A DNA stretch of 64,000 bases. Origin: Bacteroidales bacterium. GTDB lineage: Bacteria; Bacteroidota; Bacteroidia; Bacteroidales; M50B96. Position numbers and translations under genes: made by a program. The stretch lies in assembly GCA_018401015.1 (NCBI GenBank), contig JAGYLP010000009.1:11599-75598 (forward strand), in the 5' to 3' direction. A model generated the notes under the pieces. The model ran no database searches. It was not told the DNA's origin and saw only the letters and a list, made by a program, of their open reading frames with translations. Below, one piece after another: positions 21,783 to 32,011 of this stretch (position 1 is its first letter; every line of letters starts with the position of its first letter).

Positions 21783-22499
21783 TTGAGTATGCATAGCAGT
21801 CAACCGAAAATAATCATTGCCATCGATGGGTTCTCATCGTGCGGAAAAAGCACTTTGGCAAGGCAAGTAGCCAAGGAACTTCACTATACCTACATCGATA
21901 GCGGAGCCATGTATCGGGCAGTAACCCTCGAAGCAATTCGAAGGAATCTGGTCGATGGCGTTCAGCCAGACGAACAAGCGCTGAGCACCTTACTCGATGA
22001 AATACAAATCGATTTTCATATCAGTAAAACAACCGGATTGCAAGAAATTTGGTTGAATGGGAAAAATGTCGAAGAAGAAATCCGCGATATCGAAGTGTCC
22101 GACTCGGTGTCTATCATTAGCAAACAAGAGGTGGTTCGCACAAAACTCGTATTCCTTCAGCGACGGCTTGGAAAGTCAAAGGGAATTGTGATGGATGGCA
22201 GAGATATTGGCACTGTGGTCTTCCCCGATGCAGAGCTAAAAATCTTCATGACAGCCGACGAAAGCATTCGAGCGAAACGACGCTACGACGAACTCATTGC
22301 GAAAGGGATGGAGGTTAAACTAGAATCCATCCAGAAGAATATTCATTTTAGAGATTATATCGACCAAACGCGAGAGATTAGTCCGCTAAAAAAAGCCGAC
22401 GATGCAATCGAATTGGATAATTCCTTTTTAAGTATTGAAGAAACCGTCCAACAGGTTATTGATCTTTTTCATCAGAAACTGAGGGAACTGAATGTATAA
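21783..22499 (+). CDS. cmk: (d)CMP kinase
   Basis: 238 aa. P-loop IAIDGFSSCGKST, SGAMYRA, MDGRDIGTVVFPDAELKIF, RAKRR. Confidence 0.93.
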   Translation: MSMHSSQPKIIIAIDGFSSCGKSTLARQVAKELHYTYIDSGAMYRAVTLEAIRRNLVDGVQPDEQALSTLLDEIQIDFHISKTTGLQEIWLNGKNVEEEIRDIEVSDSVSIISKQEVVRTKLVFLQRRLGKSKGIVMDGRDIGTVVFPDAELKIFMTADESIRAKRRYDELIAKGMEVKLESIQKNIHFRDYIDQTREISPLKKADDAIELDNSFLSIEETVQQVIDLFHQKLRELNV

Positions 22500-22509
22500 A
22501 ACCAAGCGC

Positions 22510-23028
22510 TTATTCCTCGCCTGGGGCCTTAAGGCTGGTCTTCTTCCTTTCGGTAGATAATGCTTCCTTGCGCTTACGAGCTTCCTCCAATCGATCGAGA
22601 AATTCACGGTTCGCAATACTATCCTCCTCCAACAATTGCCGATTGCTTTCAATAATCAGCGTATCAGTTGGAAGGCTATCTGATGGATGATCCTGCGTCA
22701 ATTCGGCTTCCAATTGACTCAAATGAACCAACAGATCTTCATAAATCTGTTCGTATTCCTCTCCTCGAAGGGAATAATACTGCACACTGGTATCAAAACG
22801 CGCGCGTTCAACACCGTACTCATCCATAATAGCCTGATAAAGAAGACTCTTATCGGCTTTGAAATGCAAACGATTAACCGACAAATAGGCATCGGCCAGG
22901 TGCAAATCAGCTAACAACAGAACAAGGGTATCGGCTGGAATAATTTCTTCCCGATGAGTTTCTTTTTCAGCATTACAAGAAACTATAAGCAAGCTGATTA
23001 ACAGCCAGGCATGAAAGATCCTTTTCAT
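22510..23028 (-). CDS. Lipoprotein, probably DUF4296 family
   Basis: 172 aa. Lipobox LLIVSC. The LLLADLHLADAYL segment resembles the DUF4296 core as I recall it. Confidence 0.5.
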   Translation of the reverse strand: MKRIFHAWLLISLLIVSCNAEKETHREEIIPADTLVLLLADLHLADAYLSVNRLHFKADKSLLYQAIMDEYGVERARFDTSVQYYSLRGEEYEQIYEDLLVHLSQLEAELTQDHPSDSLPTDTLIIESNRQLLEEDSIANREFLDRLEEARKRKEALSTERKKTSLKAPGEE

Positions 23029-23057
23029 CCTGCTAAGCTAGGCATATTAAACGAATC

Positions 23058-23699
23058 TTAGCAGCCTCCTTCGGCCGATTTCTTAGCTCTTTTTACCGGG
23101 ATAACCGGCAATGAGGCCTTGCTCTCTTTTGGAGCTGAATTGACTTTACCTCCTCCGCTCAACTGCTCTTTGAGCGCCTCAAAATCAACCGTCGATTGTT
23201 CCACAAGAATCTCCTTCATCGGAAAAGAGCCTGCCTGGTCTTTCCCTTGATAACCCGAAAGTAAAACCAGATTATTGGTATAACCCAACTGGCGCAATAG
23301 CATCCAATACGGAATAACCTCATCAGGGTGAGAGGCATACAAAATATTGATGTACTGATCATCTTCCAACCAATCGCGATAAGTATCCTCTAACAAAGCA
23401 TGCGAAGGAATATTAATCGCTCCTTGGAAATGACCTTTAATGTAGTCGTGAGGATTACGCAAATCGACTAAACGGTGGGGGAAAGAGGCGAAAGAGAGCA
23501 ATTCTTTTGCTTGATTCGGATTCACGGTACTTTCCTCCATATTTGTCAATTCGAGCGCTTCGGCGCCACTTACTGCGTATTCAAATTCAGGTTTTGGCAG
23601 GGTAATGAACCCGACGATGAAAACTACCAAGAACAGGAAGCCACCCAAAGGTAACTTATAGGAAATTTTTTTATGATCGTTCGGATGTGCGATACTCAT
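23058..23699 (-). CDS. Membrane-anchored rhodanese-fold protein without the active-site Cys and with a C-terminal ...KRAKKSAEGGC tail
   Basis: 213 aa. N-terminal TM helix LGGFLFLVVFIVGFITL. Rhodanese-like core (LVDLRNPHDYIKGHFQGAINIP ... INILYASHPDE...LLRQLGY). By spacing against the GlpE active-site loop, the catalytic position is Ala. The single Cys is the last residue. Confidence 0.75.
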   Translation of the reverse strand: MSIAHPNDHKKISYKLPLGGFLFLVVFIVGFITLPKPEFEYAVSGAEALELTNMEESTVNPNQAKELLSFASFPHRLVDLRNPHDYIKGHFQGAINIPSHALLEDTYRDWLEDDQYINILYASHPDEVIPYWMLLRQLGYTNNLVLLSGYQGKDQAGSFPMKEILVEQSTVDFEALKEQLSGGGKVNSAPKESKASLPVIPVKRAKKSAEGGC

Positions 23700-23718
23700 A
23701 ACAATAAAGATTTAAGGG

Positions 23719-24333
23719 TTAACAACCACCTTGGGCAGCTTTCTTTTTTCTACTAACTTGAATCATAGGCTTCTTGGGTGCTTCAGACTCAACCGTTTCT
23801 TCTGCCGAGTTTCCAAAATACTGGCTGGCAGCTACTCGAAAACTATATAAGTCGAACTCCTCTTGTGGAGCGGTAGAGGCAGGCTTAACTGGATTTAAAA
23901 TCGTTTCTGCCCAACGATTTACGCCACCTTCAAGCACGTATATATTGGACAAGTTACGACGTTTCGACAACACCCAGGCCTGCGTGGCTTTGGCCGAGGT
24001 ATTGGAATAAAAAATCTTTCGCAAGCCCTCTTGTTGCAGATAAGGCAAATAATTGGGAGACTGAATACTATCCAAGGGAATGTGGAGCGACCCAGGCAAA
24101 GAAAAGTTTTGATATTCATCCCCGGATCGTACGTCGATAAGCAAAAAATAAGGATCCTTTTCAACAATCGAATGGGCCAATTCATCGGTACTTATCCAAC
24201 GGCTTTCGTCGTTGATAGCTAGCAGTAAATCGACCGGATCCTTTTCGATTTTTATTTGTTTCTCCGGTAAAAACATGAGCACCGCTCCGAGCAAAATAGC
24301 TATGGCCGACACAAAAGCATATCGTATATTCAT
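23719..24333 (-). CDS. Membrane-anchored rhodanese-fold protein without the active-site Cys and with a C-terminal ...SRKKKAAQGGC tail
   Basis: 204 aa. TM helix FVSAIAILLGAVLMFL. Rhodanese core (LLIDVRSGDEYQNFSLPGSLHIP ... KIFYSNTSAKATQAW ... VLEGGVNRW). The catalytic position is Ser. The single Cys is the last residue. Confidence 0.78.
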   Translation of the reverse strand: MNIRYAFVSAIAILLGAVLMFLPEKQIKIEKDPVDLLLAINDESRWISTDELAHSIVEKDPYFLLIDVRSGDEYQNFSLPGSLHIPLDSIQSPNYLPYLQQEGLRKIFYSNTSAKATQAWVLSKRRNLSNIYVLEGGVNRWAETILNPVKPASTAPQEEFDLYSFRVAASQYFGNSAEETVESEAPKKPMIQVSRKKKAAQGGC

Positions 24334-24345
24334 GCTGGTAAGAAT

Positions 24346-24936
24346 TTAGTATTCAACTTTTTTAACACGTTTTTCAATCCACCGGGTTGCATAAAATGCT
24401 ATAAGCGCAACCGCAATTAGCATAAAGGCAAAGCTCCCCTGGCGCATCCCTAAACTATCGTAAACCTTGATTCGGCCTAAATCGCCGGCGAAAACAAAAT
24501 CTACCCACCAGTCATAGGTAAATCCGAAGAGGCTAATGCCGATAAAAATCCCGACAAGAAAAACCATGGCATCAATCTTTCCTATAGAAGCAGCACAAAC
24601 GCTGGTTCCGGGACAAAATCCACCAACAATGAATCCGAGGCCCATAATGGCACCGCCGGTTAATGCCGATGGCCAGAATGTTGGATTCACATACACGAGC
24701 GATAAATCGATCCACTCAAAATAGTGAAAGAACAATAGCCCTACCATGGCAGTAATAGCCGCAGTGAAGAATACACGCAAAACGACAAAGTCGTAGCCGT
24801 AAAAAACACCGGCTAATTTGCGACTGGAAGAAAATCCGGCCTGCTCCAATACCCCGCCAAAAAATAATCCTAAAATAAAGGCAAGAACAAAGTTCCAATT
24901 ACCTCCAATAATATCCTGTGTTACAAGTGGTCCCAT
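24346..24936 (-). CDS. YeeE/YedE family sulfur-compound transporter, half-size subunit
   Basis: 196 aa, polytopic, Gly-rich helices, conserved GGFCPGTSVC motif. Confidence 0.85.
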   Translation of the reverse strand: MGPLVTQDIIGGNWNFVLAFILGLFFGGVLEQAGFSSSRKLAGVFYGYDFVVLRVFFTAAITAMVGLLFFHYFEWIDLSLVYVNPTFWPSALTGGAIMGLGFIVGGFCPGTSVCAASIGKIDAMVFLVGIFIGISLFGFTYDWWVDFVFAGDLGRIKVYDSLGMRQGSFAFMLIAVALIAFYATRWIEKRVKKVEY

Positions 24937-24954
24937 CTTAGTTTCTTTTAAAAA

Positions 24955-25479
24955 TCAAATCCAAAGTTTACGCATGAAATAAGCAAATAAAAAGGCTGTC
25001 CCAAAGATGGCCAGCATCGAAATAAAACCTGCGGTAGAAAGTACTGCCATCCCACTCAATGCCGCACCACTGGTACATCCTCGACCAAATTGAGAACCGA
25101 TACCAAATAAAATACCTCCCAGCACAGCTGCTATTAAGCGGGTTTTGGAACTAATTTTAGGAGAATGTTCTACTTTAAGTTTTAAACGCCCGGCAAAGGC
25201 TCCGGAAATTAATCCACCCAGCAAAACGCCCAATACTTCGAAAACGAGCCAGGACTTAAGCGGACTCTCTCCTTCCGAAGCGCCCGACTCAAAAAAGAGA
25301 GTCGATGAAGCAAATTCCGGGGCAACCGTCCCAACAGTTGTAACCACAACACTTTTAACAGCTCCTGAAGCACCTAATCCCCTCCCGGTAAAATAGAACG
25401 ATGCCAACAGAACCAATCCTAATAAAAATCCGGCTAAATACGGATTCATATACTTTGAAGCTTGCTTATTTTCTTCCAT
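24955..25479 (-). CDS. YeeE/YedE family sulfur-compound transporter, half-size subunit
   Basis: 174 aa, polytopic, conserved GRGCTSGAALSG motif. 18 nt upstream of the second half. Confidence 0.85.
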   Translation of the reverse strand: MEENKQASKYMNPYLAGFLLGLVLLASFYFTGRGLGASGAVKSVVVTTVGTVAPEFASSTLFFESGASEGESPLKSWLVFEVLGVLLGGLISGAFAGRLKLKVEHSPKISSKTRLIAAVLGGILFGIGSQFGRGCTSGAALSGMAVLSTAGFISMLAIFGTAFLFAYFMRKLWI

Positions 25480-25520
25480 ATCAATAATTACTAAAACGTT
25501 AACTCCTATTCTTCATATCT

Positions 25521-26462
25521 TTAATACAGGTATCGAGTAACCTGACCAGCCTCTACCATAATGAAGCGGAAAATAATTCCACCAAGCAAAATCAAAGCTG
25601 CTGGAATTGCGACCGGAATATGACGGCCACTTAACTCAATAATCTCCAAACTAGCAGGAACAATCAACCCAATCCCAACTACGAAAACCCAAAAGGAGAA
25701 GGTAAATTGCCCTCCCAGGAAATACTTAGCTGCCTCAATCTGCACCTCGGTACTGGCCAAGAATCCCATGAACAAATGAATGATAAAAAACAACTCGATG
25801 GCAATCAACATTAAGTCGATTTGCGAAAAGAGTTTCCGCTCTTTAGCATCCTTGCTTAACCACATGATGCTCGCAGCACCGGTCGATAATCCACTAACCA
25901 AAAACAGTGGGCCTAAAATGGAGGTATTCCACAACGGACGAGCATTAAATGCCGATAAAAGAATACCTGTATAAACTCCCAGAATGATTGAAAAAATCAA
26001 TATAATCCAGGCAAGACCTTGTTTATTTTTCTGCAACCAGGCTTCCAATTGAATCACCAGTTTAAACTTCCAGTCCCAATTGGGGAAGAAATCTTTAATG
26101 TGAAGGGCAACCCACACAAAGGACAATGGCGTTACAACCATGAGGGTCCATGCACCCCACGACATTGGTGAATCGAAACGAATGGTGGTATAGAGTTGCC
26201 AAAAGAATAGCTTGTGTTTTAAATCTAAGAACAAGGCAAACAAGCCTAAAACCAGGGCAAAGGGCGCAATAACCGGTGCAATCCTAACCGCCGTTTTATA
26301 CTTATCCTCTTTTCCCAGCACTGTGTAGAGGGAGGCAAAAAATAGCAGTCCTGCCGCAAGACCACCTAAGAAAAGATACACCGGTATTTGCCAATGCCAA
26401 ATATGCAGCACCGGATCGATGTTCAAATTAGCGCGTCCACTAATAAATAATTCTTCTTTCAT
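25521..26462 (-). CDS. NrfD/PsrC-type integral membrane quinol-interacting subunit
   Basis: 313 aa, about 8 TM helices. The N-terminus WHWQIPVYLFLGGLAAGL is typical of the NrfD/PsrC family. Located downstream of the A and B subunits. Confidence 0.85.
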   Translation of the reverse strand: MKEELFISGRANLNIDPVLHIWHWQIPVYLFLGGLAAGLLFFASLYTVLGKEDKYKTAVRIAPVIAPFALVLGLFALFLDLKHKLFFWQLYTTIRFDSPMSWGAWTLMVVTPLSFVWVALHIKDFFPNWDWKFKLVIQLEAWLQKNKQGLAWIILIFSIILGVYTGILLSAFNARPLWNTSILGPLFLVSGLSTGAASIMWLSKDAKERKLFSQIDLMLIAIELFFIIHLFMGFLASTEVQIEAAKYFLGGQFTFSFWVFVVGIGLIVPASLEIIELSGRHIPVAIPAALILLGGIIFRFIMVEAGQVTRYLY

Positions 26463-26571
26463 AGCATTCAGTTTTTCTCAATCCTTCTATTTATTGAAAC
26501 AAGGCAAAGTGAGGATTCAATTTCGTTGAAAGCGACTCGCTTCGACCCGAAAAAGGTTAACCTCCCATTTG

Positions 26572-27105
26572 TCAGATTAAATAATATACCATGGGTTTCG
26601 TTCCAGCTTCGGGTGCTAAAACCTTGTACTTGCGTGTTTTTAGCATTCTGGAAACATCGGAATTTTCATCATCCAGGTCGCCGAAATACATACAATTCGT
26701 TGGGCAAACCGACACACAGGCAGGCTTTTGTCCTTTTTCCACTCGATGATAGCAGAAAGTACATTTATCTACATAACCTTCCGGGTGGGAATACCTTGCA
26801 TCGTAAGGACAAGATTGTATGCAGGCACCACAACCAATGCATTCGTTGTGATAAACGGCCACAATACCACCTTCCTTATAATGGCTCGCTCCGGTAGGAC
26901 AAGCTCGCACACAAGGCGAATTATCGCAATGATTGCAACGCTCCGAACGAAGCTCAATCTCTAACTGTGGATAAGTACCATCTACTGCTTCGACAATCCA
27001 ATCGCGGCAATACCCTATCGGTACGTTATTTTCTGTCTGACAAGCGACCACACAATCGCTACATCCCACACATTTCAGGGTATCAATGGCCATTGCATAT
27101 CTCAT
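26572..27105 (-). CDS. 4Fe-4S ferredoxin-type electron-transfer subunit (PsrB/DmsB family)
   Basis: 177 aa with four Cys clusters (CVGCSDCVVAC, CNHCDNSPCVRAC, CIGCGACIQSCP, CTFC...CVSVCP). Its start overlaps the psrA-like stop in ATGA. AGGAGG lies 8 nt upstream. Confidence 0.9.
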   Translation of the reverse strand: MRYAMAIDTLKCVGCSDCVVACQTENNVPIGYCRDWIVEAVDGTYPQLEIELRSERCNHCDNSPCVRACPTGASHYKEGGIVAVYHNECIGCGACIQSCPYDARYSHPEGYVDKCTFCYHRVEKGQKPACVSVCPTNCMYFGDLDDENSDVSRMLKTRKYKVLAPEAGTKPMVYYLI

Positions 27106-29345
27106 AAGGCAACCTCCTCTTTACTACTTGGTTTTTCAACATGAAACGTAACAAAATTTCCACGCATGCCGGTTCCACCCATGATCGGGTCGACCATCAC
27201 ATTGGTTATCATTTGTGTATCGCTGGCTCCTCGACCATAAGCACGGGTTAGTTGTTTATTGCTGTGCCCAAAACCATGAACCATGTACACCGAATCCCAG
27301 CGAATTCGTTCGGTAACTCGAACTTTAATGGGGAAGGATGATACTACTCCATCCTGATTCTCCAACCAAATGGGCTGTTCGTTCTTTAATCCCCATTGCT
27401 TCGCAACTTTTGGATTAATCCATATCTTGTTCTCATCCATCAAATCGGTTAGATTCGGATTGTTCGCTGTACGACTGAACGTGTGCATGGGAGCCCGACC
27501 ATAAATAAGTCGGTAAAAACCGGCAGGTGGCTCCGGATGTTTCGTATAAACCGGCATCGGATCAAAACCTTCTCGCTCCAATTCAGTCGAATACAATTCA
27601 ATTTTACCCGAATTGGTATTAAACTGTGGAACTTCACCTTCACGGAAGTATAAATCATCAAATTCACGATCGAAAGACTTGACTCCCACAACCTTCATTT
27701 CTTCCAGGCTCGATCCAACTTGGCGTAACTGCCAATCGAGCAGCTCCTCATGCGACTCATAATTAAAGTACTCGCTTAATCCAACCTTGTGAGCCAATTG
27801 ACGAGCCATCCATTCTGCTGGTTTACAATCCCAACGAGGCTCGGCGGCGGGCATACGAAGGGCCATTTGAGGAATCCGATGGGGGGAAACCCGAATTTCA
27901 TCGTAACGCTCCAAATAAGTACATTCAGGCAATACCACATCGGCATAGCCGGTTATGGCCATCGGCATGGTATCAATTACAACCACTAATTCCAACTGAT
28001 TCAAAGCTGCTTCCGTTAATTTTTTGTCGGGCAAGGTCTCTATCAGGTTCGTACCATTAATAAACCAGGCTTTGTAGGTAAAATCGCGTTCAATATTAAT
28101 CGTACTGGCTTCGCAAATACCATTCGATAAAAAGGTATCGGCTAAATTATATTTGCCTTGATGCGCATCCGATTTGGTTTTCTTTGGTTTAGGATACTTC
28201 GGACCGGGGAATTTCGGAAGCTTGAACTTTTCAGGAATATAAAAACCGCCTCTTCGACCCCAGGCACCCAAGAGTGCATTCAAAATAGCCACTCCTCTCA
28301 TCCGCTGGGTATCATCGCCATACCAGGTTACATGTCGGCCTGGATGAACGATTACCGAAGGGGAAGCTTTGGCCATTTCATAGGCCGATTTTCGAATTAA
28401 ATCGGGCTTAATCGTGGTAATGCCATAGGCCCACTCCGGTGTGTTATTTTTAACATGAGCTTTCAATTGCTCAAATCCTATCGTATTTTGCTCAACGTAT
28501 TCCTTATCATACAATTCCTCGTAAATAATGACATGAATCCATGCGAGAAGCAGAGCAATATCGGTAGCAGGCTTAATGGGTAGCCAATACTTCGATTTAG
28601 AGGCCGCCGTTGAAAAGCGAGGATCGACAGTGATAATGGTGGCTCCTTTGTCGATGGCTTGCGACATTTCTTGTACCTGACCATTATGCATGTTTTCACC
28701 TAAATGTGAACCAATTAAAACTAAACATTGAGTATCGCGAATATCCAGGGGTTCTGGAGAGCCTAATTGAGAACCGAAGGTAACATTGAAGGCTACTTCA
28801 CGTGGACCTCTACACTGTGCATAAGAAGGTGCGGTGATACTTGCGGACCCGAAGGCTTTCAGCAAATGACCAAAATAAGTTCCACCAGAACCGTGTGAAA
28901 ACAAGGCAATCGATTCAGGACCCCATTTATCGGAAATCTCCTGCATACGTTTAGCAATAAAGCTTAATGCCTCGTCCCAACTAGCCTTTCGGTAGCGTTG
29001 AACTCCATCGACCGTCTCTCTTATTAAAGGTGTTTTGAGTCGATCATCATCATAATACATTCCAACTCCACCCGTACCTCTCGGACAAAAGCGGCCGTTG
29101 CTGTGTAAATCGTCTTCATTCCCTTCTATCTTCCATAATTCTCCCTGCTCGTTTGTATAAGCCCATCCGGCGCATTTCCAAAAGCAAATCTCACAATACG
29201 TTGGAAAACGCTTTGCTTTCGAATCGTCCATCGGCTCCTTGTTCTTCATGAAGTCGGGAAGCCATCCAAAAACAGGTTTTGTAATCGCTAATGCACCGGC
29301 TCCTAATGCCGATATTTTGATAAAATCCCTCCTATTCGTTGCCAT
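27102..29345 (-). CDS. Tat-exported molybdopterin oxidoreductase catalytic subunit (polysulfide/thiosulfate/tetrathionate reductase-like, PsrA/PhsA family)
   Basis: The track ORF runs to 29432, but the preferred start is the ATG at 29345. That start gives the twin-arginine signal MATNRRDFIKISALGAGALA, and a TATCTTTG -7 box sits 40 nt upstream, inside the longer ORF. N-terminal FeS motif CEICFWKC...CPRG. Length is ~747 aa. Substrate cannot be assigned from sequence alone. Confidence 0.85.
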   Translation of the reverse strand: MATNRRDFIKISALGAGALAITKPVFGWLPDFMKNKEPMDDSKAKRFPTYCEICFWKCAGWAYTNEQGELWKIEGNEDDLHSNGRFCPRGTGGVGMYYDDDRLKTPLIRETVDGVQRYRKASWDEALSFIAKRMQEISDKWGPESIALFSHGSGGTYFGHLLKAFGSASITAPSYAQCRGPREVAFNVTFGSQLGSPEPLDIRDTQCLVLIGSHLGENMHNGQVQEMSQAIDKGATIITVDPRFSTAASKSKYWLPIKPATDIALLLAWIHVIIYEELYDKEYVEQNTIGFEQLKAHVKNNTPEWAYGITTIKPDLIRKSAYEMAKASPSVIVHPGRHVTWYGDDTQRMRGVAILNALLGAWGRRGGFYIPEKFKLPKFPGPKYPKPKKTKSDAHQGKYNLADTFLSNGICEASTINIERDFTYKAWFINGTNLIETLPDKKLTEAALNQLELVVVIDTMPMAITGYADVVLPECTYLERYDEIRVSPHRIPQMALRMPAAEPRWDCKPAEWMARQLAHKVGLSEYFNYESHEELLDWQLRQVGSSLEEMKVVGVKSFDREFDDLYFREGEVPQFNTNSGKIELYSTELEREGFDPMPVYTKHPEPPAGFYRLIYGRAPMHTFSRTANNPNLTDLMDENKIWINPKVAKQWGLKNEQPIWLENQDGVVSSFPIKVRVTERIRWDSVYMVHGFGHSNKQLTRAYGRGASDTQMITNVMVDPIMGGTGMRGNFVTFHVEKPSSKEEVAL

Positions 29346-29384
29346 AGTTGATCTTTTTATGAACCGTTTCAATAATTTCCGACT

Positions 29385-29392
29385 CAAAGATA
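29385..29392 (-). promoter_or_regulatory. -7 promoter box (TATCTTTG on the minus strand) for the psr-like operon
   Basis: Exact TAnnTTTG, 40 nt upstream of the Tat-signal ATG at 29345. Confidence 0.5.
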
Positions 29393-29674
29393 CTTTAATA
29401 TGAAATGGCCGTAACCAAGGCGGAAATGTCATCCAGCAGGTTACATCTCAACACGCTCCACACTACCACATGAAACCCTAATAATCAAACCATTAAACAC
29501 TAATAAGAACAAATCTAAATATCTAGATATGTTGCAAATCATACTTCAAACTAAAACCGATCAGGAATAAGCTAAATTCGGTCGCTTATGATTTAACCCG
29601 TTAAAAATTTGTTTTGATTCGAGGCTTTTACTTTACTTTGCGCGAATTTTTAATAAACCAACAGCCATCATTTT

Positions 29675-32011
29675 ATGAGTGAACAAAACCTCGTCATAGT
29701 GGAGTCCCCAGCCAAGGCTAAGACGATCGAACAGTTTTTAGGACCCGATTTTTTGGTTAAATCGAGCTTTGGTCATATTCGGGATTTGTCAAAAAAGAAA
29801 CTGGGAATCGATTTAGACAAAAACTATCAACCACTATACGAAGTATCTTCCGATAAGAAAAAAGTAGTAGCGGAACTGAATAAACTGAGTAAAAAAGCGA
29901 AGACAGTTTGGCTAGCCTCCGATGAAGACCGCGAAGGAGAAGCCATTGCATGGCACCTTTTTGAAACCCTCGAACTTTCGGAAGAAAAAACCAAACGAAT
30001 CGTATTCCACGAAATTACCAAACAGGCCATTCTTCACGCAGTAGAAAACCCCCGGCAAATCGATTACAACTTGGTCAAGGCTCAACAAGCACGCAGAGTT
30101 CTCGATCGATTGGTGGGTTTTGAGTTATCGCCGCTCTTGTGGAAAAAGATCAAACCGAGTTTATCGGCAGGGCGGGTACAATCGGTTGCAGTACGAATAC
30201 TGGTAGAGCGCGAAAGGGAAATTAACGGTTTCGTTCCGGAACATTTTTTCAAGATCGTGGCTGAATTCATCGATCCAAAAAGCAATCAATCTTTCAAAGC
30301 TGAACTTAATCAGCGTTTTCAGACCAAAGAAGAGACCGAACAATTCCTGGAAGCTTGTAAGTCTGCTCAATTTTCCGTTCAGGAAATTTCTACCAAACCA
30401 GGAAAAAAATCACCTTCAGCACCATTTACTACCTCTACACTACAACAAGAAGCCTCCAGAAAATTAGGGTTTTCGGTGGCTCAAACAATGTCGGTTGCTC
30501 AAAAACTTTATGAATCCGGACAAATCACCTACATGCGTACCGATTCATTTAACCTTTCCTCGCTGGCGATTAATACAGCCAAAGCGACAATCATCTCCGA
30601 GTATGGTGAAAAATACTCACAACCAAGAAAATACGCTACCAAATCGAAAGGAGCTCAGGAAGCTCACGAAGCAATCCGACCAACCTACATGGAAAACAAA
30701 ACGGCCAAAGGTGGACGGCAAGAACAAAGACTCTATGACCTAATTCGAAAACGAACGCTTGCTTCGCAAATGAGCGATGCTCTCCTTGAAAAAACCAATA
30801 TTCACATTGCCATTTCTAATCGACCGGAAAAATTCCTGGCTAGTGGCGAAGTGATTCTTTTCGATGGATTTTTAAAAACCTATTTTGAATCGACCGATGA
30901 GGAACAAGACAACCTGAAATCCTTCGACGAAAGCGGACTCTTACCTGCGGTAAAAGCCAATGAAGCCCTCGATATGAATTCGATGCTTGCGACCGAGCGG
31001 TTTACTCAACGGCCAGCCCGATACACAGAGGCAAGCCTTGTAAAACGCCTGGAAGAATTAGGAATCGGCCGACCCTCAACTTATGCTCCAACTATTTCAA
31101 CCGTGCAAAACCGGGGTTACGTTGTTAAAGAAGACCGTCCGGGTATTTCGCGCGATTATTTACAATATCAACTTGAAGCGGGAAATATCCGCTTAGAAAC
31201 AAAAACAGAAACCGTTGGAAATGAAAAAGCGAAGCTCTTTCCAACCGATATTGGCATGGTTGTGAATGATTTCCTAATGGAACATTTTTCCGAAATCATG
31301 GATTATCACTTTACAGCAAACGTGGAAAAAAACTTCGACGAAATAGCCGAGGGTGACATGGAATGGACTAAAATGATCGACAACTTCTATCGTCCTTTTC
31401 ATAAACAGGTAGATGTTACCGAGAAAAATTCAAGCCCGGAAAATGGCCGCCGGCTCTTAGGCGATGACCCTAAAACAGGTAAGCCAGTCTATGCTCGAAT
31501 TGGTCGTTATGGCCCCATAGTTCAAATTGGCGACAACGACAAGGATTCGAATGAAAAACCACAATATGCAAGCATTAAGAAAGATCAGTCGATCGAAACC
31601 ATTACCCTCGAAGAGGCGCTTTTACTTTTCAAATTGCCCCGCAATTTGGGTTCTTACGAGAACTACACCGTAAGCGTGTCAATTGGTCGATTTGGTCCTT
31701 ACATTAAACACAATAATAAATTCTATTCGCTTCGCAAAGACATCGACGATCCGTATAGCATTGAATTAGAGCCAGCCATTGAATTAATGGAAGAGAAGAG
31801 GAAGGCCGACCGCGAAAAACTCATTAAAAGTTTCGACAACGAAGGCGACCCGATCATCCTCAATGGACGCTGGGGTCCCTATATCAGCTATCAGAAAAAG
31901 AACTATAAAATTCCGAAAGACACCGATCCGAAAGGACTCAGTCTCGACGATTGCATGAAACTGATTGAAGCTGGTAGCAAAGCAGCTCCCAAAAGAAAGA
32001 AGAAAGCCTAA
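29675..32011 (+). CDS. topA: DNA topoisomerase I
   Basis: 778 aa. TOPRIM LVIVESPAKAKTI, SDEDREGEAIAWH, active-site region ITYMRTDS, Lys-rich C-terminus. Confidence 0.97.
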   Translation: MSEQNLVIVESPAKAKTIEQFLGPDFLVKSSFGHIRDLSKKKLGIDLDKNYQPLYEVSSDKKKVVAELNKLSKKAKTVWLASDEDREGEAIAWHLFETLELSEEKTKRIVFHEITKQAILHAVENPRQIDYNLVKAQQARRVLDRLVGFELSPLLWKKIKPSLSAGRVQSVAVRILVEREREINGFVPEHFFKIVAEFIDPKSNQSFKAELNQRFQTKEETEQFLEACKSAQFSVQEISTKPGKKSPSAPFTTSTLQQEASRKLGFSVAQTMSVAQKLYESGQITYMRTDSFNLSSLAINTAKATIISEYGEKYSQPRKYATKSKGAQEAHEAIRPTYMENKTAKGGRQEQRLYDLIRKRTLASQMSDALLEKTNIHIAISNRPEKFLASGEVILFDGFLKTYFESTDEEQDNLKSFDESGLLPAVKANEALDMNSMLATERFTQRPARYTEASLVKRLEELGIGRPSTYAPTISTVQNRGYVVKEDRPGISRDYLQYQLEAGNIRLETKTETVGNEKAKLFPTDIGMVVNDFLMEHFSEIMDYHFTANVEKNFDEIAEGDMEWTKMIDNFYRPFHKQVDVTEKNSSPENGRRLLGDDPKTGKPVYARIGRYGPIVQIGDNDKDSNEKPQYASIKKDQSIETITLEEALLLFKLPRNLGSYENYTVSVSIGRFGPYIKHNNKFYSLRKDIDDPYSIELEPAIELMEEKRKADREKLIKSFDNEGDPIILNGRWGPYISYQKKNYKIPKDTDPKGLSLDDCMKLIEAGSKAAPKRKKKA

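Follow-up and report, generated by a model that had tools for sequence, protein, structure and literature searches.

A Psr/Phs-like reductase operon of a Bacteroidales bacterium with a split YeeE-type channel and rhodanese-fold proteins bearing a cysteine-tipped tail

We analysed a stretch of 64,000 nucleotides (nt), hereafter the window, from a Bacteroidales bacterium (M50B96; assembly GCA_018401015.1, contig JAGYLP010000009.1; genome completeness 99%). The analysis centred on a tightly packed cluster of seven genes at 23058-29432, all on the minus strand, encoding a three-subunit reductase of the Psr/Phs type (PsrABC), the two halves of a YeeE-like channel (YeeE1 and YeeE2) and two rhodanese-fold proteins that end in a cysteine-tipped tail (Rhd1 and Rhd2). 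An earlier note on this DNA had rightly described the same-strand, close packing of the cluster but counted eight genes in it; seven are found, and its own list also sums to seven. The genes are listed below from psrA onwards, with coordinates given as window positions throughout.

psrA, 27102..29345, minus strand: catalytic molybdopterin subunit with a twin-arginine translocation (Tat) export signal, 747 amino acids (aa), Thermus-type Psr/Phs
psrB, 26572..27105, minus strand: four-cluster ferredoxin subunit, 177 aa (Fer4_11, E 2.8e-24)
psrC, 25521..26462, minus strand: NrfD-type membrane quinol-binding anchor, 313 aa (PF03916, E 1.7e-47)
yeeE1, 24955..25479, minus strand: PmpA/YedE1-like half-channel corresponding to the C-terminal half of YeeE (helices H8-H13), Cys135 in GRGCTSG
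yeeE2, 24346..24936, minus strand: PmpB/YedE2-like half-channel corresponding to the N-terminal half of YeeE (H1-H6) plus an H7-like fifth helix, Cys108 in GGFCPGT
rhd1, 23719..24333, minus strand: predicted membrane-anchored rhodanese fold without the catalytic Cys, tail ...KKKAAQGGC (PF00581, E 2e-12)
rhd2, 23058..23699, minus strand: paralogue of rhd1 with the same architecture, tail ...KRAKKSAEGGC (PF00581, E 9e-9)

The psrA and psrB genes are joined by an ATGA overlap, as noted before, with an AGGAGG-like site (AGAGGAGG) ahead of it. Further down, the intergenic gaps measure 109 nt (psrB-psrC), 41 nt (psrC-yeeE1), 18 nt (yeeE1-yeeE2), 12 nt (yeeE2-rhd1) and 19 nt (rhd1-rhd2), the last three values replacing the 9-19 nt given earlier for the spacing among the yeeE halves and the rhd genes. 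The 109-nt gap is indeed the largest of the unit, but it is not conserved, most relatives having 9-40 nt at this position, and it holds neither an open reading frame (ORF) nor a structured element of note. An eighth gene was rejected: no ORF fits the 109-nt or the 41-nt gap, and the DUF4296 gene downstream of rhd2 is not conserved with the cluster.

The product of psrA carries the Pfam domains of a molybdopterin oxidoreductase (PF00384, E 4e-41) and of a molybdopterin dinucleotide-binding module (PF01568, E 2e-13), the twin-arginine motif NRRDFIK within MATNRRDFIK and, at Cys 51/54/58/87 of its 747 aa, the CX2CX3C...C motif of the iron-sulfur cluster FS0, the latter two in agreement with the earlier reading of this subunit. 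Its best solved relative is PsrA of Thermus thermophilus (PDB 2VPW; 665 bits, E 9e-199, residues 4-735), the next best PDB entry being acetylene hydratase (178 bits), with ArrA at 98 bits. Among the NCBIfam models, PhsA comes out best with 461 bits, against 217 for DmsA and 123 for ArrA, a score under the PhsA equivalog cut-off of 694 bits (NF012032, enterobacterial thiosulfate reductase); by tblastn, the protein shares ~31% identity with enterobacterial PhsA (plasmid-borne E. coli phsA). Both sets of scores favour Psr/Phs over a non-sulfur clade, which bears out the placement in the Psr/Phs/Ttr branch proposed beforehand. As for the residue that binds molybdenum, which the earlier note had left to be checked, the candidate is Cys178 (in SYAQCRGPREV): it aligns with Cys173 of Thermus PsrA, reported as the Mo ligand by Jormakka et al. 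2008.

PsrB contains 16 Cys in four CxxCxxCxxxC-type groups, and the NrfD character of the membrane subunit is confirmed by its Pfam match. The complex therefore shares with Thermus thermophilus PsrABC (PDB 2VPW-2VPZ) the layout of three subunits, namely a Tat-exported subunit with molybdenum-bis(pyranopterin guanine dinucleotide) (Mo-bisPGD), a four-cluster ferredoxin and an NrfD-type anchor, and its catalytic subunit shares both the iron-sulfur cysteines and the Mo-ligand cysteine with Thermus PsrA; unlike the Thermus genes, the operon here runs on into four accessory genes. The psr genes on Marine Group A fosmids differ in being ordered psrBCA and in lacking a signal sequence (PMC3906813). 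Judged by these matches, the catalytic subunit is a typical representative of the known Psr/Phs branch of Mo-bisPGD (dimethyl sulfoxide reductase family) enzymes, and it is the sole Psr/Phs-like enzyme of the genome.

YeeE1 and YeeE2 match complementary parts of the Sulf_transp profile (PF04143), YeeE1 its positions 173-309 (70.8 bits) and YeeE2 its positions 10-157 (50.4 bits), both above the Pfam cut-off. A profile built from 18 YeeE1 orthologues, which have 30 invariant columns, matches residues 237-326 of Spirochaeta thermophila YeeE (StYeeE, PDB 6LEO) and aligns GRGCTSG, whose Cys is invariant in 18/18 orthologues, with AGGCNIG including C293. The YeeE2 profile matches StYeeE residues 5-119, the region of C91, weakly (E 0.05), and a direct phmmer search of YeeE2 against the PDB returned nothing; its GGFCPGT motif is invariant in 18 orthologues and lies in the expected loop. 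The C293 equivalent is hence kept and that of C91 probably so. The earlier note had listed GCTSG and CPGTSVC as the conserved cysteine motifs of the two halves, which holds for the cores of both but not for the second Cys of CPGTSVC, which varies; the C22 position of PmpAB also has no Cys, as here (PMC11582611).

StYeeE has its N-terminus outside and its C-terminus inside, and its helix H7 inverts the two halves relative to each other (PMC7449682). Loop charges point to an N-out/C-in arrangement for YeeE2 and N-in/C-in for YeeE1, and YeeE2 possesses a fifth, H7-like helix according to a model of a natural YeeE2-Rhd fusion, of which only the helix count was used (pLDDT, the predicted local distance difference test score, of the channel half: 67). 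In PmpAB, PmpA is the homologue of the C-terminal and PmpB that of the N-terminal half, both without H7 (PMC11582611), and for the YedE1E2 pair uptake of zero-valent sulfur has been demonstrated (PMC10812762). PmpAB of Serratia and YedE1E2 of Cupriavidus pinatubonensis are likewise encoded by two half-size genes with the C-terminal-half homologue first. On profile matches and gene order, YeeE1/YeeE2 are a channel of this type; the description as a split YeeE thus stands as far as both halves match Sulf_transp, yet PmpAB/YedE1E2-type pair with the C-terminal half encoded first is the better name. The halves are larger here (174 and 196 aa vs ~130 aa, YeeE2 with its additional helix), no TusA/YeeD or PDO partner accompanies them, and they are coupled instead to cysteine-tailed proteins and nearly always to a periplasmic reductase, with fusion to the rhodanese in loci of the Otr type described below. 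The lack of a TusA/YeeD-like gene, already remarked upon for the locus, extends to the whole genome, in which PF01206 has no match at E <= 0.01 while the control search was positive in 10/14 reference genomes.

The two last genes encode proteins that had been recognized as rhodanese-fold with Cys tails, and both indeed match PF00581 and end in GGC. An AlphaFold2 model of Rhd1 (pLDDT 84) shows a transmembrane helix at 3-21, a rhodanese core at ~45-150, a helix at 157-177 and a disordered tail, and the top Foldseek matches of this model are all rhodanese domains (probability 1.00). Neither active-site loop contains a cysteine (FYSNTSAKA in Rhd1, LYASHPDEV in Rhd2). The loss is general: the position of the catalytic Cys is taken by another residue (Ser, Gly or Ala) in 76/76 Rhd1 and 26/27 Rhd2 orthologues. 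The sole cysteine of Rhd1 is its last residue, C204, and G203 and C204 are invariant. Among the orthologues of Rhd1 a Cys, usually the only one of the protein, stands last or next-to-last (GGC, GGCS, GGCG) in 74/76, at the end of a flexible, Lys-rich tail of ~25-30 residues with a net charge of about +4.5. Two loci, L029 and L031, have a variant Rhd2 that ends in ...DE[ED]CPDLN instead of GGC, followed by a GGC-tailed tandem rhodanese downstream; the L029 variant has a genuine loop Cys (LYCRGKNQA), where L031 has Gly.

Rhd1 and Rhd2 are only 24% identical with their tails aligned, and the tails of the two proteins resemble each other more within a genome (6.7/11 residues) than between genomes (2.7/11). 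In several pairs the tail peptides match fully or almost fully although their coding sequences differ, locus L093 having 14/14 identical residues but 36/42 identical nt; the nucleotide differences of several near-identical pairs are synonymous, which points to selection on the peptide in addition to any gene conversion. These features fit a role of the tail as a recognition element. As the only cause of the matching tails, gene conversion is unlikely in view of these synonymous-site differences, although it may still explain locus L056 (39/42 nt identical).

Precedents exist for both ingredients of these proteins. Sud of Wolinella succinogenes is a periplasmic polysulfide-sulfur transferase that probably passes its polysulfide sulfur on to the reductase, and it is, like SbdP of Aquifex aeolicus, a rhodanese-fold partner of a Psr- or Sre-type enzyme. 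However, Sud is a soluble dimer with the canonical active-site Cys, whereas Rhd1 lacks that Cys in 76/76 orthologues, is predicted to be membrane-anchored and has its lone Cys on a disordered C-terminal tail. SoxY, with its C-terminal GGCGG arm, and DsrC, with a Cys on its C-terminal arm, carry covalently bound sulfur between enzymes, and the Gly-flanked Cys at the end of a flexible arm is common to them and the present proteins. A SoxY-type C-terminal GGC arm is found in 74/76 Rhd1, a likeness of motif only: the fold here is that of rhodaneses, the linker is much longer and Lys-rich, a membrane anchor is present, the partners are reductases rather than Sox or Dsr proteins, and none of the seven gene products matches the SoxY or SoxZ Pfam families. 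A divergent soxY gene does adjoin otr in lucinid symbionts (PMC11237559).

From these comparisons we favour a reading in which the tail cysteine ferries sulfane sulfur among substrate, reductase and channel mouth, much as Sud, SoxY or DsrC do; we assign it a probability of roughly 0.5. The same tails could alternatively belong to structural, assembly or regulatory subunits, for instance for docking the reductase to the channel or for redox sensing by the tail thiol. Rhodanese domains that have lost catalysis frequently function as binding modules, and the co-variation of the tail between the paralogues is what a docking peptide would show. Yet the covalent carrier SoxY is characterised by just such an invariant Gly-Gly-Cys at the tip of a disordered arm, the carrier Cys of DsrC is also on a flexible C-terminal arm, and catalytically intact periplasmic rhodaneses of Otr-type loci bear the same tail. 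We consider such a structural, assembly or regulatory role quite unlikely.

The side of the membrane on which the tails operate matters for their partners. Rhd1 and Rhd2 are most likely anchored by their N-termini, with the rhodanese domain and tail in the periplasm. The charge bias around the anchor fits an N-in orientation. In Otr-type modules, yeeE2 and rhd are fused, in 23/23 cases, via one extra transmembrane helix that follows the cytoplasmic C-terminus of YeeE2 and that is seen in the model of the fused protein. Moreover, the tandem rhodaneses with GGC tails in these loci have lipoprotein signal peptides, and each of the two mutually unrelated partner reductases is periplasmic, Psr by its Tat signal and the Otr-type enzyme as a multihaem cytochrome c. 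With the rhodanese domains most likely periplasmic, the places at which the tails would act are the reductase and the outer channel opening. The suggestion of the earlier note that the Cys-tail proteins replace TusA/YeeD consequently remains plausible as regards their role, but not their location, YeeD being cytoplasmic.

To place the cluster in a wider context, a YeeE1 profile was run against ~186,000 species genomes and returned >556 relatives, of which the best 80 loci, comprising 82 yeeE1-yeeE2-rhd modules, were analysed. These loci come from Bacteroidales/Marinilabiliales, Cytophagales, Flavobacteriales, Ignavibacteria and Marinimicrobia. Fifty-one modules follow psrABC, 23 follow an Otr-type octaheme cytochrome c (PF11783) with a cytochrome b561, 5 have other neighbours and 3 lie at contig ends. 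The yeeE2-rhd fusion found throughout the Otr-type modules occurs in 0/51 of the Psr-type. The full seven-gene order is present in at least 12 genomes of different families and a seven- or six-gene order in dozens, a recurrence beyond chance; rhd2 is present in about a third of the related loci. A Rhd1 homologue was found in 25/41 related genomes, mostly as a tandem pair, and a YeeE1 orthologue (E <= 1e-30) in 71/401 sampled genomes of the phylum, or 52/180 genera. With psrABC ahead of 51/82 modules and a separate module copy for each reductase, conserved synteny strongly supports the link between reductase, transporter and putative carriers that had been proposed from the single locus. And because the tails of the Psr-type and Otr-type have features in common, at least one of their docking partners should be the YeeE pair that both types share.

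Several of the related loci deserve mention. L089 and L092, in Lentimicrobiaceae/Bacteroidales metagenome-assembled genomes, have Psr- and Otr-type operons head to tail, each with its own yeeE1-yeeE2-rhd; yeeE2 and rhd are separate behind psr and fused behind otr, and the tail sequences differ. At L023:5806-6900 and at 12 further Otr-type loci, tandem rhodaneses combine catalytic Cys loops and lipoprotein signals with a GGC end, an arrangement that suggests a passage of sulfur from active site to tail. An Npsr-like CoA-disulfide reductase with a C-terminal rhodanese domain is encoded a few kb upstream of the Otr-type modules of L025 (3845-5536), L076 and L077. Cultured carriers of the cluster are Carboxylicivirga caseinilyticus A049, Maribacter polysiphoniae DSM 23514 and Chondrinema litorale WSW3-B12. 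The latter has the same seven genes on a 310-kb plasmid (NZ_CP111047.1, 246578-252515; locus L117), ~4 kb from an IS4 transposase, with a short, tail-less second rhodanese gene and only generic RefSeq names.

The order psrABC, two Sulf_transp genes and a rhodanese gene was listed in 2019 in one paragraph on 'Candidatus Thermonerobacter thiotrophicus', whose psrABC is most similar to genes of Melioribacter roseus and Ignavibacterium album (PMC6338057). That paper gives the gene list only; neither the missing catalytic Cys nor the GGC tail, its topology or the Otr-linked version is discussed there, and our literature search found no description of any of these elsewhere. The kit of channel and Cys-tailed proteins is an uncharacterised variant of known sulfur-carrier themes.

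The gene neighbourhoods also bear on a second possibility, namely that the module serves assimilation. YeeE1/2 and the Cys tails would then mainly serve to bring thiosulfate or zero-valent sulfur from outside the membrane into the cell, where cysteine and cofactors are made from it, with the tails as the outer counterpart of YeeD/TusA and with Psr only supplying or trimming the substrate. Both YeeE (PMC7449682) and YedE1E2 (PMC10812762) are importers by experiment. The genome contains no TusA, no NIR_SIR sulfite reductase and no PAPS-reductase/CysD match over the cut-off, hence the organism, probably unable to assimilate sulfate, would have to obtain reduced sulfur. On the other hand, the module adjoins a respiratory reductase in 74/79 modules away from contig edges, it is duplicated where two reductases occur (L089 and L092), and the same genome has a second YeeE-type locus that looks more assimilatory, so we regard an assimilatory purpose as rather unlikely, though a serious alternative. 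This second locus (L116; genome G000, contig C25, 263-6589) encodes a LysR regulator, a secreted tandem rhodanese of 304 aa, a secreted rhodanese of 330 aa, a Porin_O_P anion porin and a 562-aa protein in which both Sulf_transp halves are fused, C-terminal half first; its rhodaneses are catalytic and none of its products is GGC-tailed.

Under the carrier reading, the seven genes would form one respiratory unit in which the four downstream genes are a dedicated accessory kit of PsrABC, the operon probably being an uncharacterised route by which sulfur reaches a respiratory enzyme. PsrABC, Tat-exported and menaquinol-dependent, would reduce S-S bonded sulfur (polysulfide or S0, possibly thiosulfate) on the periplasmic side. 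YeeE1 and YeeE2 would assemble into one YeeE-like channel as in PmpAB/YedE1E2, with Cys135 of YeeE1, the equivalent of StYeeE C293, facing the periplasm and Cys108 of YeeE2 the cytoplasm. Rhd1 and Rhd2 would not be usual sulfurtransferases, given that the active-site Cys is gone and the lone Cys sits at the end of a flexible tail. The tail thiol would attack S8, polysulfide or another S-S compound to form a persulfide or polysulfide; the arm would then swing the bound sulfur into the PsrA funnel for reduction to sulfide, and it would also reach the outer mouth of YeeE1/2, whose Cys relay could pass sulfur inward. A wider formulation, which we put forward only tentatively and as the less probable claim, is that GGC-tailed pseudo-rhodaneses form a novel class of covalent sulfur carrier that is periplasmic and tethered to the membrane, that Psr- and Otr-type reductases of Bacteroidota, Ignavibacteria and Marinimicrobia use carrier-bound sulfur rather than free polysulfide or tetrathionate, and that the split YeeE swaps sulfur with the arm through its Cys relay.

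The same parts could also work in the opposite direction: the Psr-like enzyme might oxidise sulfide to carrier-bound polysulfide, which the channel would then import, or YeeE1/2 might export sulfane sulfur from the cytoplasm to the tails, where its reduction by quinol would detoxify it and serve as an electron sink. In sulfur oxidisers, Psr-like enzymes may operate backwards (PMC8359478), nothing obvious in the Cys relay of YeeE fixes a direction (PMC7449682), and the Npsr-like CoA-disulfide reductase-rhodanese gene lies near some Otr-type loci. Uptake is nevertheless the only activity experimentally demonstrated for the transporter family (PMC7449682, PMC10812762), Thermus Psr, the nearest enzyme that has been characterised, is regarded as a reductase, and no cytoplasmic sulfur-oxidation genes adjoin the locus (the genome was not searched for Dsr/sHdr). 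We consider such a reversal improbable.

Several points weigh against the carrier reading itself. Its weakest point is the purpose of a channel in a purely periplasmic reduction; Wolinella Psr is not known to need one. The genome, in which no assimilatory sulfate reduction genes were found, fits an uptake role. The periplasmic placement of the tails rests on homology, the positive-inside rule and the fusions, and the YeeE2 part of the fused-protein model is poor (pLDDT 67). Across 74 modules, the charge of the tail does not co-vary with that of the periplasmic loops of YeeE (rho 0.13, p 0.26); electrostatic docking of the basic tail on acidic YeeE1/2 loops, for which the mean charges are complementary (+4.5 vs -5.1), is therefore unsupported. 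Finally, Psr, Phs and Sre are not separable by sequence (PMC8359478), for which reason the substrate of this PsrABC is not readable from it.

Three further features lie on either side of the cluster:

DUF4296 lipoprotein-like gene, 22510..23028, minus strand: PF14129, 29 nt downstream of rhd2
candidate Bacteroidota-type -7 box TATCTTTG, 29385..29392, minus strand: 40-47 nt upstream of the psrA ATG, found by pattern scan
second candidate -7 box TAGATTTG, 29510-29517, minus strand: found by pattern scan

The two boxes, both of the TAnnTTTG type, fall in the 329-nt divergent intergenic region between psrA and topA (29346-29674), which has no adjoining regulator gene; a MerR gene has been reported at the equivalent position in 'Ca. 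Thermonerobacter'. The open frame of psrA extends to 29432 (776 aa), its real start being the ATG at 29345 directly before the twin-arginine motif; this 747-aa form is favoured because the box TATCTTTG falls inside the longer frame. The window shows no enrichment of TAnnTTTG boxes, which makes TATCTTTG a consensus match only; sigma-70 and terminator scans stayed at background level, and an Rfam scan of 22400-29800 yielded no element of note and no molybdenum cofactor riboswitch. The DUF4296 gene adjoins the cluster only in a genome of the same genus; it is ~2.4 kb off in genome G004 and missing from the other loci. It probably does not belong to the module, although it may be co-transcribed with the cluster here.

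Sulfur reduction in sediments, oxygen-minimum zones and sulfidic springs is commonly traced by means of Psr/Phs-like marker genes, and to our knowledge the delivery of insoluble or scarce sulfur substrates to such reductases is known only for Sud of Wolinella. The present survey indicates that a large bacterial group couples its reductase to a fixed kit of a Cys-lined channel and Cys-tipped proteins, and that the same kit also serves the octaheme Otr. If the tail is indeed a carrier, anaerobic respiration would include a novel sulfur intermediate bound to a protein, the physiological role of Otr would gain a point of access, and the rhodanese fold would have been reused as a scaffold after the loss of its catalytic cysteine.

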